A stretch of 64,000 nt of DNA from Paenibacillus silvisoli (GTDB taxonomy: Bacteria > Bacillota > Bacilli > Paenibacillales > Paenibacillaceae). The notes beneath the pieces are model-generated. The model was not told the origin of the DNA. It did not search any database and saw nothing but the letters and a program-made list of their open reading frames with translations. The stretch spans positions 973,091 to 1,037,090 of the forward strand of contig NZ_CP133017.1 of the NCBI RefSeq assembly GCF_030866765.1, given 5' to 3'. Shown piece after piece: positions 21,341 to 34,740 of the stretch (its first letter is position 1; each line of letters opens with the position of its first letter). Position numbers and translations under genes: made by a program.

Positions 21341-21385
21341 GAACCCGAGTGATTGGAAATGGCGCTCGGGTTCTTATAATTTTGC
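21341..21385 (+). terminator. Rho-independent terminator after rlmCD; marks the left edge of the low-GC island
   Basis: gaacccgag-N15-ctcgggttc followed by TTATAATTTT. Confidence 0.75.
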
Positions 21386-21431
21386 TATCCTTGAGATGTT
21401 CTGAGAAGCAGAATTGATAGTACCTAAAAGT

Positions 21432-21833
21432 TTAAGGAGAGCCTTTGCGAACAAACTGATTTTTAGCCACCAAAATGTCCCTACAGGTTTGTTCTATCAC
21501 TAAATCAAAGTTGGATTTGAGATCATGTTCCCAGACCCTGACTAAAAGCCATTTATTATTAATGTAGTATTGAGTAACTTCCCAATCTCTCTCAATGTTA
21601 CGATTTATTTTTTTATTCCAGTAATCTGAATTCTTTGAAGGCAACTTAAAGTGGGTTTTACATCCATGCCAGAAACATGAATCAATGAAAATGGCGACTT
21701 TGTACTTTTTTATTGCTATATCAGGCTTTCCGTACAATGAAAGAACGTTTTTTCGAAATCTAAAGCCATTTTTCCAAAGGGTCTTTGAGACGGACTGTTC
21801 TAATTTAGTATTTTTACCTCTTATTTTCCCCAT
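21432..21833 (-). CDS. vsr: Very-short-patch-repair (Vsr) T:G mismatch endonuclease, orphan (no adjacent Dcm)
   Basis: 133 aa, colinear with E. coli Vsr: KIRGKNTKLE...PDIAIKKYKVAIFIDSCFWHGC...WNKKINRNIERDWEV...WLLVRVWEHD. AT-rich. Confidence 0.8.
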   Translation of the reverse strand: MGKIRGKNTKLEQSVSKTLWKNGFRFRKNVLSLYGKPDIAIKKYKVAIFIDSCFWHGCKTHFKLPSKNSDYWNKKINRNIERDWEVTQYYINNKWLLVRVWEHDLKSNFDLVIEQTCRDILVAKNQFVRKGSP

Positions 21834-21893
21834 TGCCTTGCTTCTGAGATCATTAGTAGAAATGCTCTACCACGCTCCTCGGAATAATAATTA

Positions 21894-21907
21894 AGAACAT
21901 ATGTTCC
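21894..21907. promoter_or_regulatory. Putative LexA (DinR) binding site / Cheo box
   Basis: AGAACATATGTTCC matches the Bacillus SOS-box consensus CGAACATATGTTCG at 12/14 positions, with a perfect GAAC-N4-GTTC core. Located in the divergent vsr / McrB-like intergenic region. Confidence 0.55.
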
Positions 21908-22062
21908 ATATGTATTGATTTTACTTCTATATCGATTCGAAAACAATATTATCCTTTTCATTAGTGGAGTACGTATCTTTCCCTTCAGAAGGACTTTGAG
22001 CCTACCTTATCGAAATCTAAGACGGGACAAAACTTATTATTTCGATTTGGAGCGAGACGACT

Positions 22063-32558: not shown

Positions 32559-32576
32559 TGAAAAGGAGGAGCTCCA

Positions 32577-33395
32577 ATGAACGATTACCATGCAGCTATT
32601 ATGACCGCGCTCGACCGGATCGAACGCGAAGAACAGATTCGAATCCTATATGCTTGCGAATCGGGAAGCCGGGCATGGGGCTTTCCTTCCAAGGATTGCG
32701 ACTACGATGTCAGGTTTCTCTATGTTCGGCCGGTGGAGTGGTACTTATCGATTTTTGAGAAGCGGGATGTTATCGAGCGGCCGATCAGTGACATGCTGGA
32801 TATCAACGGCTGGGATCTGCGAAAAGCTTTAAATCTGTTCCGCAAGTCCAACCCGCCACTGCTTGAGTGGCTCCAGTCCCCGATTGTCTATAAGGAGGAG
32901 CATACGGTCGCAGAGCAAATTCGCCGGATTGCGCCAACGATGTTTTCGCCGAAGTCATGTATGTATCACTATTTGCACATGGCAAAAGGGAATTACCGTA
33001 TGTACCTGCAGGGAGAGCAAGTGAAAATCAAAAAATACTTCTATGTCCTTCGGCCGATACTGGCTTGCGAGTGGATCGAAAAGCATAATACGATGCCGCC
33101 TATCGAATTCGAACGTCTGGTCGATGATGTTGTGCCAAAGGGGAGCGAGCTTAGAGCGATCATCGATTGTTTGCTTGCGCGTAAAAGAGCGGGCGACGAA
33201 ATGGATTACGAACCGAGGATCAATCCGATAAACGAATTTCTGGAGGAAAGAATGGAGTATTACGAGGTGGCCGCTGCAGGTATGCAAACACCTGGTGGAG
33301 GTCAAGAGCAGCGCATCGACGATCTGTTTCGATCGGCGCTGAAGGAAGTATGGGAGAAAGGTGATGAATGGACTTATGGCCTATCAAAATATTAA
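32577..33395 (+). CDS. Pol-beta-superfamily nucleotidyltransferase (RlaP-like, RNA-ligase-associated NTase)
   Basis: NTase signature CESGSRAWGFPSKDCDYDVRFLY (GS...G then DxD). About 270 aa with a helical C-terminal domain. AAAGGAGGAG RBS. Confidence 0.6.
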   Translation: MNDYHAAIMTALDRIEREEQIRILYACESGSRAWGFPSKDCDYDVRFLYVRPVEWYLSIFEKRDVIERPISDMLDINGWDLRKALNLFRKSNPPLLEWLQSPIVYKEEHTVAEQIRRIAPTMFSPKSCMYHYLHMAKGNYRMYLQGEQVKIKKYFYVLRPILACEWIEKHNTMPPIEFERLVDDVVPKGSELRAIIDCLLARKRAGDEMDYEPRINPINEFLEERMEYYEVAAAGMQTPGGGQEQRIDDLFRSALKEVWEKGDEWTYGLSKY

Positions 33396-34602
33396 TGGCG
33401 TGCGTGTCTGGGGGAATCCCGACAGCGGGGCACTAGCTCAAGCGAAAACATGCGCGGGAAATGGGAATGTGGTTCAAACGCTGCTTATGGCGGATCATCA
33501 TAAAGGGTATAGCCAGCCGATCGGCGGGGTTGTCGTCTATGACGGGCAAATCTCCCCTTCGGGCGTAGGGTACGACATCGCATGCGGAAATAAAGCTGTG
33601 CGCACCAACCTGTTAGCTGAGGACATAAAGCCAAGGCTGTCGAAGATCATGGATGAGATTGCTCGCAAAATCTCCTTCGGCGTAGGCCGCGTCAATAATG
33701 AGCGGGTCGATCATGAGCTTTTCGATGATCCGGACTGGGCTGTATATAAGTCGATTGGCAAGCAGGAGCATGATAAGCTGAAAGCATTGGCGCAAAGCCA
33801 GCTAGGTACAGTCGGCAGCGGCAACCATTTCGTCGATTTGTTTGAAGAAAAGGGGACCGGCCGCTTATGGGTCGCCAATCATTTTGGAAGCCGGGGCTTC
33901 GGTCATAAAACGGCAAGCGGGTTTATGAACCTGGCAGCCGGCCGGGAGTTTCTAGGAAACGCCTCTGGGGAGAAGATGGATCAGCCGCCGGTTCTGCTTG
34001 ATCTGAGCAGCGAGCTTGGTGATATGTATGACCGGGCAATGACGCTGGCAGGGCGGTACGCATACGCGGGTAGAGATTATGTGATGCGGCAGGTTCTAGC
34101 CATTCTGGGCACGGATGCGGATCTTGACGTGCATAACCATCATAACTTTGCTTGGAAAGAGACGCATGATGGGAAGGAAGTTGTCGTTGTCCGTAAAGGG
34201 GCGACTCCATCCGCGCCAGGTCAGGTTGGTTTTATCGGCGGCAGCATGGGGGATATATCCGTGATCGTGAAAGGCAAGGACAGCATCGAGAACAGGGATT
34301 CCTACTACAGCACCGTTCATGGAGCGGGACGAGTGATGAGCCGGACCCAAGCGGCGGGTAAAATGAACTGGAAAACGCGTACCCGGAGCGGCGGTCAAAT
34401 TTCGACGGAGCAAATGATGGACGCAGTTCGGGATTATGGCGTGGAATTGCGAGGCGCGGGGACGGATGAGAGTCCTTTCGTTTACCGGAGGCTTCAAGAG
34501 GTGCTGGATGCGCATGCGGAAACGATCGAGGTCATGCACGTGCTGAAGCCGATTGGGGTTTGCATGGCTGGAGCGGATGAGTTTGATCCGTATAAGGATT
34601 AA
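33364..34602 (+). CDS. rtcB: RtcB-family RNA 3'-phosphate/2',3'-cyclic phosphate ligase
   Basis: RtcB motifs MADHHKGYSQPIGGV, GYDIACGN, GSGNHFVDL, HNHHNFAW, HGAGR. Overlaps the NTase gene by 32 nt. GGGAG RBS 7 nt before the ATG. Confidence 0.85.
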   Translation: MNGLMAYQNINGVRVWGNPDSGALAQAKTCAGNGNVVQTLLMADHHKGYSQPIGGVVVYDGQISPSGVGYDIACGNKAVRTNLLAEDIKPRLSKIMDEIARKISFGVGRVNNERVDHELFDDPDWAVYKSIGKQEHDKLKALAQSQLGTVGSGNHFVDLFEEKGTGRLWVANHFGSRGFGHKTASGFMNLAAGREFLGNASGEKMDQPPVLLDLSSELGDMYDRAMTLAGRYAYAGRDYVMRQVLAILGTDADLDVHNHHNFAWKETHDGKEVVVVRKGATPSAPGQVGFIGGSMGDISVIVKGKDSIENRDSYYSTVHGAGRVMSRTQAAGKMNWKTRTRSGGQISTEQMMDAVRDYGVELRGAGTDESPFVYRRLQEVLDAHAETIEVMHVLKPIGVCMAGADEFDPYKD

Positions 34603-34610
34603 TGAATGAA

Positions 34611-34645
34611 ACTGAGGTGATTTTGCCTCGGTTTTTTTTTTTTAT
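34611..34645 (+). terminator. Terminator after rtcB; right edge of the island
   Basis: ctgaggtgattttgcctcgg hairpin followed by an 11-T run. Confidence 0.7.
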
Positions 34646-34740
34646 TGTCCAAGCTAACTCGTAAATATTTCATATTTTACAGAGTGGAAGATTATGTAAA
34701 ACTTAATTCTTCTATCTGAGAAGGAATGATTGAAGGAGTG

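Follow-up and report, generated by a model that had tools for sequence, protein, structure and literature searches.

A compositional mosaic of defence genes and a predicted RNA-repair cassette, with a structured tRNA-like RNA, at the rlmCD 3' flank of Paenibacillus silvisoli

Chromosomal hotspots for defence islands are known from Escherichia coli (PMC10121019) and, as core defence hotspots, from Pseudomonas aeruginosa (PMC10250203), and a defence island at a hotspot is already a well-known kind of arrangement. Here we analyse 64,000 nucleotides of Paenibacillus silvisoli DNA (contig NZ_CP133017.1, positions 973,091 to 1,037,090; hereafter the window), in which nuclease genes, regulators and an RNA ligase gene follow rlmCD, the gene of a 23S rRNA m5U methyltransferase. 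A sequence-only reading had described 21380-34650 as one low-GC defence island of about 13 kb at a conserved integration hotspot. We consider it likely that the segment is instead a mosaic accreted at the rlmCD 3' flank, made up of a defence island (block A) and an independent RNA-repair cassette (block B).

The closest described relatives of block B concern RNA repair by RtcB, which ligates RNA with 3'-phosphate or cyclic-phosphate termini to RNA with a 5'-OH end. RlaP extends damaged RNA 3' ends by one or two nucleoside monophosphates (PMC12776372). An association of Band-7 proteins, band-7-associated tRNAs (b7a-tRNAs) and RtcB was predicted by Burroughs and Aravind in 2016, as summarised in a 2018 preprint (bioRxiv 10.1101/312249), whose summary calls b7a-tRNA interchangeable with the YrlA RNA and experimentally unvalidated at that date. 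The rtc locus of Pseudomonas aeruginosa contains the SPFH protein PaFlo8 (PMC13086221), and the enterobacterial rtc operon, as summarised in PMC10159003, is switched on by RtcR, a proposed sensor of tRNA halves. The WYL-associated Band-7/RlaP/RtcB cassette of the window, with its large YrlA-like RNA, is a variant of the system predicted in 2016, which is still uncharacterised.

We profiled GC content across the window in a 1-kb sliding window and compared codon usage gene by gene, as GC content at third codon positions (GC3) and as similarity to flank genes. GC lies at 0.55-0.65 on both sides of the segment. Directly 3' of the rlmCD terminator it falls abruptly from about 0.58 to 0.36-0.46, over 21.4-28.7 kb, whereas it is only mildly lower than the flanks over 29-34.6 kb (0.50-0.53). 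GC3 is uneven too and forms three tiers inside the segment (0.29-0.37, 0.49-0.53 and 0.57-0.67). The left anchor, the features of block A and the GC3 values on either side of them are as follows.

19869..21329, + strand: rlmCD, 23S rRNA m5U methyltransferase, left anchor (Pfam TRAM and tRNA_U5-meth_tr)
21340-21375, + strand: rlmCD terminator hairpin (sequence inspection); GC falls directly after it
21432..21833, - strand: Vsr-type very-short-patch endonuclease (TIGR00632 and Pfam Vsr); GC3 0.37
21874-21896 and 27224-27246: arms of an inverted repeat bracketing the McrB/McrC pair (repeat search)
22063..24801, + strand: McrB-like GTPase subunit, 912 aa (Pfam MrcB_N and AAA_5; PADLOC PDC-M26A); GC3 0.49
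24773..27187, + strand: McrC-like nuclease partner, 804 aa (Pfam DUF2357 and PDDEXK_7); GC3 0.53
27202-27225: terminator after the McrC-like gene
27256..28338, + strand: NERD-HRDC protein, predicted nuclease (Pfam NERD 3.3e-17, HRDC 5.6e-15); GC3 0.36
28403..28654, + strand: 83-aa open reading frame (ORF), followed by a bidirectional hairpin at ~28701-28733; GC3 0.29
Block B, two WYL genes, SPFH, RlaP and RtcB: GC3 0.57-0.67
Right of 34.65 kb: Peptidase_G2 repeat protein gene, GC3 0.44; S-layer-homology (SLH) surface protein gene, GC3 0.60
Native flank genes: GC3 0.63-0.83 (most 0.69-0.83)

The left edge at ~21.38 kb is sharp and coincides with the rlmCD terminator hairpin, and the step between the tiers coincides with the strong bidirectional hairpin at ~28701-28733, where GC jumps. 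The right end at 34.65 kb, in contrast, is a terminator and not a compositional boundary: atypical composition runs past it, and native GC3 is reached again only at 41.8 kb. Thus the left edge of the proposed island and its low GC as far as 28.7 kb were borne out, but 28.8-34.6 kb does not belong to one low-GC block, and the right boundary did not hold, no conserved right-flank gene being present either. The gene calls of the sequence-only reading (Vsr, McrBC-like, NERD-HRDC, WYL regulators and SPFH-nucleotidyltransferase-RtcB) were confirmed by Pfam, NCBIfam and PADLOC. Its statement that the segment encodes only defence and repair functions agrees with the PADLOC matches, which were obtained for 7/10 island proteins and for 1/10 flank proteins. 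We conclude that the segment is a composite mosaic of at least three compositional blocks and not one 13-kb unit. Separate acquisition of the blocks is suggested because the GC3 tiers differ and because the right cassette occurs independently elsewhere.

Signs of mobility in the window itself are few, as had been noted. Pfam scans of the annotated ORFs from 12.2 to 64 kb gave no match to integrase or transposase families, and ARAGORN called no tRNA in the window. A repeat search found no direct repeats at the 21.38-, 28.7- and 34.65-kb boundaries, so that those looked for at the two ends of the proposed island, 21.38 and 34.65 kb, were not there. Searches of plasmid DNA with both halves of the segment returned matches to single genes only (vsr, NERD-HRDC, rtcB, rlaP) and never to the whole island. 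The DNA homology of rlmCD to all relatives ends at 21280-21295, 35-50 nt before the stop codon, and the last ~10 RlmCD codons (21280-21329) are lineage-specific; judged from the alignment, a recombination junction may lie inside the rlmCD 3' end.

To place the site in a wider context, we compared 80 Bacillales loci, each consisting of rlmCD and the 10 kb to its left and right. Their RlmCD homologues are 52-75% identical to that of P. silvisoli, the closest among species representatives being 75% identical. Upstream, dagK is syntenic in 67/80 loci and cbiX also in Paenibacillaceae. Downstream, none of the window's genes 3' of rlmCD, from the island or from the right flank to 64 kb, occurs within 10 kb in any of the 80 loci, so the gene content at this position is not shared among the relatives. 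GC drops were counted over 73 of the 80 loci, within 3 kb after rlmCD, with two adjacent upstream blocks of the same loci as control. A drop of at least 5 points was found in 41/73 loci (upstream control, 7/73) and one of at least 10 points in 22/73 (control, 2/73); 20 of the 21 Paenibacillaceae-like loci show a drop. Steps of 10-30 points begin within ~100 bp of the rlmCD stop codon. In an all-against-all clustering, 71% of the ORFs downstream were singletons, compared with 29% upstream.

Insertions at this point can be seen directly in some relatives. A tyrosine integrase gene abuts the rlmCD 3' end on the opposite strand in four loci of different genera, namely P. haidiansis (locus L007), a Bacillota metagenome-assembled genome, Bacillus solitudinis and Brevibacillus (L020, L028 and L043). 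The integrase element of P. haidiansis measures 5.2 kb, begins ~90 bp past the stop codon and is bounded by a perfect 24-nt direct repeat. Two further Paenibacillus species (L001 and L010) are colinear but for a 4.3-kb AT-rich insertion in L010, ~110 bp after the stop codon, and form a clean pair of empty and occupied sites. The L010 insertion (11537-15841) holds three ORFs of 318, 161 and 675 aa, none with a Pfam match, and is a candidate for an uncharacterised defence system.

The cargo of the site in relatives includes well-known defence genes. BREX BrxA/B/C follow rlmCD directly in a B. subtilis-group strain (the first three genes were checked), and an MrcB_N-HNH protein stands at the flank in B. 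haynesii. Elsewhere the flank carries Dcm with an HATPase protein, Mrr with an SMC-family ATPase, GmrSD, or a sacsin-type ATPase. With equal samples of 130 downstream and 130 upstream proteins, pooled so that loci are not resolved, PADLOC matched 353 families downstream and 110 upstream, the latter mostly generic ATPase cross-hits. The pooled downstream matches include LmuB (1e-100), NsnB (1e-97), LmuA and Old, and two of the 130 downstream proteins are strong Lamassu LmuA/LmuB matches. In B. subtilis 168 we take yeeA-yeeB-yeeC to adjoin yefA in the gene order. The yeeA(dnmA)-yeeB-yeeC genes form a restriction-modification-like cluster (PMC7261158).

These results support the view that mobile and defence DNA has repeatedly been inserted at the rlmCD 3' flank across Bacillales, and that the site is anchored on one side. 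The hotspot downstream of rlmCD that the sequence-only reading had drawn from B. subtilis is thereby upheld; of its conserved position, the left anchor and the variable cargo stand, but the cargo is not confined to defence and a right anchor was not found. Like the hotspots of E. coli and Pseudomonas aeruginosa, the site has a core-gene anchor followed by variable AT-rich cargo that is rich in restriction and abortive-infection genes, with occasional integrases, and it is occupied by different systems in different genomes. Unlike them, it keeps only a left anchor (cbiX-dagK-rlmCD) and is common to families of Bacillales rather than to one species. We found no literature that names rlmCD or yefA as a hotspot, and the cross-family anchor appears to be undescribed in the searchable literature.

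Block A (21.38-28.7 kb) begins with vsr, whose product scores 117.7 bits with TIGR00632 (cutoff 97.85) and 1.5e-21 with Pfam Vsr, and whose DNA finds ~75% nucleotide matches on Geobacillus, Planococcus and Priestia plasmids. No island gene has a Pfam DNA_methylase match that would mark a Dcm-type partner; the orphan Vsr, which is encoded next to a restriction pair of methyl-dependent type, is most simply a nicking nuclease that acts by itself or what is left of an earlier Dcm-Vsr module. The McrB-like protein matches MrcB_N (6.9e-46) and AAA_5 (1.8e-8) in Pfam and PDC-M26A in PADLOC (6e-56), and has an extra N-terminal region; with the NCBIfam McrB equivalog it reaches 47 bits, short of the cutoff of 637. 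Its family is Paenibacillus-wide, with long and short N-terminal forms, and the P. montanisoli homologue is 84% identical. Its McrC-like partner, whose gene start overlaps the McrB-like gene by 29 nt, matches DUF2357 (1.9e-62) and PDDEXK_7 (1.2e-47) and, weakly, PADLOC PDC-M26B (1.8e-4). As in E. coli McrBC and PDC-M26, an AAA_5 GTPase with an N-terminal DNA-binding domain is thus paired with an overlapping downstream PD-(D/E)XK protein. The N-terminus differs from that of E. coli McrB in being MrcB_N (DUF3578) plus about 150 extra aa and not the E. coli reader domain, and the partner differs from canonical McrC in its DUF2357-PDDEXK_7 make-up, its PADLOC B-subunit match being weak.

The inverted repeat around this pair is 23 nt long and imperfect, with the outer 12 nt perfect, and each arm lies exactly in one of the intergenic gaps on either side of the sub-block of GC3 0.49-0.53. 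Because the composition of the pair differs from that of its neighbours and the repeat brackets it, the pair may be a nested insertion.

NERD-domain proteins are common in defence islands. The NERD-HRDC protein, the C-terminus of which is the predicted nucleic-acid-binding part, has no dedicated PADLOC model, and its HRDC part alone matches DpdF. A homologue 72% identical lies in Brevibacillus laterosporus beside an HNH gene, downstream of spo0A. A NERD-domain RNA endonuclease effector was recently reported (bioRxiv 10.64898/2026.04.06.716636). The 83-aa ORF gave no match in Pfam, PADLOC, NCBIfam or PHROG. From the Paenibacillus McrB family, the Brevibacillus NERD-HRDC protein and the vsr matches on Bacillales plasmids, the donors of block A would therefore belong to the local Bacillales accessory pool.

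Block B occupies 5.9 kb (28.8-34.6 kb) and has five genes, two for WYL regulators that diverge from an SPFH-RlaP-RtcB operon. Its features are these.

28779..29636, - strand: 285-aa WYL-type protein, second gene of the regulator pair (PADLOC WYL 3e-12)
29593..30906, - strand: 437-aa HTH-WYL-WCX transcription regulator (Pfam HTH_11, WYL and WCX; PADLOC WYL 1.1e-26)
31067..31403, + strand: ~340-nt structured RNA in four parts (covariation in eight species)
31443..32558, + strand: SPFH/Band-7 (slipin) protein (Pfam Band_7 1.7e-22)
32577..33395, + strand: RlaP nucleotidyltransferase (Pfam RlaP 6.4e-99)
33361..34602, + strand: RtcB 3'-phosphate RNA ligase (Pfam RtcB 4.1e-69)
34608-34635: rtcB terminator

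The genes for SPFH and RlaP are 18 nt apart, and those for RlaP and RtcB overlap. RtcB keeps the metal-binding and GMP-histidine motifs (DIxCG, GSGNHF, HxGSRGxGH, HGAGR) in an alignment to Pyrococcus horikoshii RtcB (4dwr). The trio of SPFH, RlaP and RtcB is that of the predicted b7a-tRNA systems and of the Pseudomonas aeruginosa rtc locus, and the tRNA-like non-coding RNA beside the Band-7 gene is a further likeness to the former. In contrast to the rtc operon (rtcR-rtcBA), the cassette has neither RtcR, a sigma-54/CARF activator, nor RtcA, and a WYL-type pair holds the position of the regulator; the RtcR and RtcA families gave no match among the genes annotated from 12.2 to 64 kb, the ORFs at 2-12.1 kb lying outside the Pfam scan.

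The 437-aa regulator shares the helix-turn-helix (HTH)-WYL-WCX architecture of PafBC, DriD, BrxR and CapW. As with pafB-pafC, the two WYL genes are adjacent and overlap, and the pair likewise stands divergently from an operon of damage-response or defence type. Unlike these regulators, neither WYL protein has detectable similarity to solved WYL regulators: searches against the PDB gave no sequence or profile match, and a single-sequence AlphaFold2 model of the WYL regulator (predicted local distance difference test score 35.6) was too poor for a structure search. The 285-aa partner also departs from a PafBC-type pair, with only a weak WYL signal (Pfam 7.5e-4, below the cutoff), no HTH match and no detectable similarity to the 437-aa protein. 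It is 75-78% identical at the same position in P. sabinae and P. guangzhouensis, where the 437-aa regulator is 88-89% identical.

Homologues of the SPFH protein are found in dozens of Paenibacillus species at 66-87% identity. We compared the window with seven such loci (L084-L090).

P. sabinae (L084): all five genes (WYL pair, SPFH, RlaP, RtcB), near genes for a DUF2357 and a Csm6-like protein
P. guangzhouensis (L085): WYL pair and SPFH, with a 529-aa protein without family in place of RlaP-RtcB
Paenibacillus sp. YYML68 (L086): WYL pair and SPFH only
P. antri (L087): order RtcB, SPFH, RlaP; no WYL pair
P. hexagrammi (L088): SPFH; no WYL pair, RlaP or RtcB called
P. pectinilyticus (L089): SPFH between two RtcB genes
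P. paeoniae (L090): SPFH and RtcB separated by a few genes

In P. sabinae the five cassette genes are 76-89% identical and keep their order and orientation among unrelated neighbours. Such conservation of the unit marks block B as an independent and self-contained cassette, for which the gene families predict RNA repair. Its neighbourhoods in other species deserve mention in their own right. At a distance of 3-7 kb from the P. sabinae cassette are the genes for a DUF2357 protein of 1339 aa and for a Csm6_6H/Cas02710 protein (L084 1-4548), and this DUF2357 neighbour echoes the one in the P. silvisoli window. In P. guangzhouensis (L085 209-9368 and 10001-12751) the WYL pair, RNA and SPFH stand beside Hen1, Pnkp, PTS_2-RNA (RNA 2'-phosphotransferase, Tpt1) and TatD, a neighbourhood that looks like an RNA-repair supercluster. 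In P. pectinilyticus (L089 8117-12855) two RtcB genes (470 and 473 aa) flank the RNA-SPFH unit, and TatD follows.

The 535-bp gap between the 437-aa WYL gene and SPFH, which had been passed over as plain intergenic DNA (30.9-31.44 kb), holds a large structured tRNA-like RNA. The gap is 82% identical in nucleotide sequence among three species, and the RNA region can be aligned in 8/8 loci (the window and L084-L090), with or without WYL genes, always immediately 5' of SPFH. The structure was predicted with RNAalifold and evaluated by covariation in the eight loci. The predicted parts are as follows.

Part 1: 5' three-way junction
Part 2: permuted tRNA-like module with T arm, closed acceptor-like hairpin, D-like region and anticodon-like arm
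31160-31176: canonical T arm, UGGGGUUCGAUUCCCCA
31177-31193: acceptor-like hairpin, 5 bp and 7-nt loop, directly after the T arm
31207-31223: anticodon-like arm, 5-bp stem and 7-nt loop CUUUUAA (UUU triplet)
Part 3, 31255-31262 with 31396-31403: long-range helix AGAAUCCC/GGGAUUCU
Part 4: 3' domain enclosed by the long-range helix, with four nested helices and an apex of variable length

Standard pairs form in 90.4% of cells in the 5' domain and in 87.9% in the 3' domain, compared with 33-44% in both domains when the 3' partners were slid by 1-3 columns. Compensatory changes support 17 pairs in the 5' domain (slid, 3-7) and 14 in the 3' domain (slid, 4-8). On four of five covariation measures 0/500 column shuffles came up to the real alignment, in the 5' as in the 3' domain; on the fifth (further standard pair types) 1/500 shuffles (5') and 5/500 (3') did. 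The single-sequence minimum-free-energy fold gives the same main helices (z = -2.1). A covariance model built from the 5' half recovered the element at the eight loci solely upstream of SPFH, with 117-201 bits, and found nothing credible in 30 other loci, stand-alone rtcB loci included. The first RNAalifold pairing of 5' CGGACG with GGGAUUC was replaced by the better-supported AGAAUCCC/GGGAUUCU helix. A 141-aa ORF on the - strand (30920-31345) overlies the conserved RNA and has no family match; it was rejected as a gene because the variation tracks base-pairing covariation and not a codon pattern.

The order of the arms (T, closed acceptor, D, anticodon) is that of a circularly permuted tRNA. 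The D-like stretch contains GG, and P. hexagrammi has a full GCUC-AGUGGUA-GAGC D arm. When the halves of the module were swapped in silico, ARAGORN called tRNA-Lys(UUU) in two species by default and in 6/6 at a relaxed threshold, and it called 0/600 shuffled controls. In native order the RNA sequences gave no tRNA by ARAGORN default; relaxed-threshold calls on them were inconsistent, mismatched and on both strands, and were discarded as noise. The anticodon-like triplet varies among species (UUU, UUC, UCC, AAG), and U33 and the stem are retained. The Rfam tRNA model scores 14.9 bits against a threshold of 29. The YrlA model (RF02553) aligns to the T arm, closed stem and D arm in P. hexagrammi with 24.3 bits (E = 0.007), below its gathering threshold of 69, and has no match in the P. 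silvisoli window, where no Rfam family reaches its gathering score. A plasmid search with the RNA region gave no match.

The RNA thus resembles YrlA (RF02553; PMC4201824) in its permuted T arm with canonical T loop, its closed acceptor-like stem and D arm, and its place in an RtcB neighbourhood. It differs in having three times the length and, in addition, a three-way junction at the 5' end, an anticodon-like arm and a large 3' domain, and no Ro60/Rsr (TROVE-type) gene was found among the annotated neighbours in the window or in L084-L090. From near-authentic b7a-tRNAs it differs in its length of ~340 nt, its several domains and its being missed by ARAGORN and at Rfam gathering thresholds. On these features it looks like a large variant of the predicted b7a-tRNA. 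Upstream of it, at 30960-31045, a block GTCGTAATACTTTCGCCATGTTCG ... ATGAGCGA-N-ATAGAACC is kept in all four loci that have WYL genes and, in part, in P. paeoniae, where none lies nearby. The block is unlike the sigma-70 consensus and may be a promoter or operator.

To the right of block B, the first gene had been taken for a Hep_Hag-repeat protein and possible prophage tail-fibre remnant.

34726..37482, + strand: repeat protein with a phage tailspike-type C-terminus (Pfam Peptidase_G2 2.5e-21)

Its 918 aa carry 42-nt (14-residue) periodic repeats and an autoproteolytic-type C-terminus, and it matches phrog_25468 (1.4e-101), a PHROG of unassigned function, and a pre-neck appendage family (1.8e-17). 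The C-terminus is of phage type, but Pfam gave no Hep_Hag match and no prophage accompanies the gene. It is a lone phage-type gene and may belong to the variable region. Further along, 47902-58311 (+ strand) encodes a 3469-aa S-layer-homology protein with ~20 atrophied Ig repeats; a RepB_primase Pfam match in it has no individually significant stretch and is probably spurious. On the other side, 5.5 kb upstream of rlmCD, 12199-14382 (- strand) encodes a 727-aa STAND-like ATPase (AAA_16, weak NACHT) of native composition and with no PADLOC match.

How the segment came about can be read in several ways. A single acquisition of one 13-kb island, from the rlmCD terminator to the rtcB terminator, would account for the contiguous and thematically coherent functions, for the terminators at both of these ends and for a GC content below the flank mean throughout. 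It is nonetheless very unlikely in the face of three GC3 tiers, the occurrence of the right 5.9 kb elsewhere without Vsr, the window-type McrBC pair or NERD, a NERD-HRDC homologue that stands alone at another site in Brevibacillus, the absence of terminal repeats, and atypical composition beyond 34.65 kb. It is also highly improbable that there is no hotspot at all, the rlmCD 3' side being a replichore or operon boundary where synteny decays by rearrangement and low GC reflects local mutational or expression bias. Such a boundary would explain why a conserved right-flank gene is absent in all relatives and why many of their downstream genes are ordinary transporters and regulators, but not integrases placed directly against rlmCD in four loci of different genera, an att-like 24-nt repeat around one integrase element, a precise 4.3-kb insertion between the colinear flanks of L001 and L010, GC steps of 10-30 points within ~100 bp of the stop codon, or defence systems such as BREX (first three genes checked) at the site.

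Possible, if somewhat doubtful, is a history in which only 21.38-28.7 kb was acquired and the WYL/RNA/SPFH/RlaP/RtcB cassette goes back by vertical descent to an ancestral Paenibacillus stress operon and became adjacent by rearrangement. Codon usage close to native, the occurrence of SPFH homologues (66-87% identical) throughout dozens of Paenibacillus species, and an RNA-SPFH unit kept in 8/8 loci examined are in line with it. Against it, the neighbourhood differs in every genome examined, and the content varies: RlaP-RtcB may be there, may be duplicated or displaced, or may give way to the 529-aa protein, and some loci lack the WYL pair. Conflict-type neighbours in P. sabinae and P. guangzhouensis (DUF2357, Csm6-like, Hen1/Pnkp, Tpt1) are moreover typical of accessory modules.

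The reading that we prefer, a mosaic of block A and block B accreted at an rlmCD hotspot, has several observations weighing against it. The cargo in relatives also includes transporters, regulators and sugar operons (a bgl operon). The search for a conserved right-flank gene, over 10 kb at each locus and over the whole window, turned up none, and a one-sided anchor could mean a plain rearrangement breakpoint and not a bounded hotspot. The window copy in P. silvisoli has no integrase or direct repeats; an empty and occupied pair is known for L001 and L010 only, and the RlmCD nearest to that of P. silvisoli is 75% identical. The McrBC pair is bracketed by a short inverted repeat of a kind that also arises by chance. 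Block B may be an old resident gene set and not acquired cargo, because its codon usage is near-native and its proteins are conserved up to 87-89% across Paenibacillus, above RlmCD with 75% or less. The activities of both blocks are predictions from sequence.

Within the mosaic reading we infer biochemical activities, regulatory logic and an order of acquisition along the following lines. Block A and block B would have been integrated separately, by integrases supplied in trans or since lost. By analogy with the McrBC family, the McrB-like GTPase would bind modified DNA through MrcB_N and its DUF2357/PD-(D/E)XK partner would cut it. Ribotoxins, such as phage-triggered or competitor anticodon nucleases and rRNases, would leave 2',3'-cyclic-phosphate and 5'-OH ends. 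The WYL regulators may sense a nucleic-acid damage signal and switch on the SPFH-RlaP-RtcB operon; by analogy, the divergent pair would be the obvious functional substitute for RtcR in this cassette. RlaP would then restore lost 3' nucleotides and RtcB reseal the RNA. In the least certain step, the tRNA-like RNA and the SPFH scaffold would act as cofactor, bait or organiser.

A more far-reaching version, which we regard as improbable, makes the ~340-nt RNA a large riboregulator of the YrlA/b7a-tRNA kind that serves as bait or sensor and couples ribotoxin attack to repair, and, as a separate point, sees in the rlmCD flank a possible Bacillales-wide hotspot for defence and mobile elements, so far without a name in the searchable literature. 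The exposed anticodon-like loop could then be the bait or sensor for anticodon nucleases, and cleavage or repair of the RNA might be read out by the WYL pair or by RlaP/RtcB, leading to induction or targeting of RNA repair.

The rlmCD anchor is easily located, and with variable defence cargo behind it in Paenibacillus, Bacillus, Brevibacillus, Cohnella and other Bacillales it would be a practical fishing ground, the three-ORF 4.3-kb insert of L010 being an example of possible finds at this flank. RtcB systems are widespread, yet little is known of the substrates, signals and RNA cofactors with which they work in nature. With a covariation-backed RNA between WYL regulators and SPFH-RlaP-RtcB, the question of the cofactor becomes testable in a Gram-positive host.

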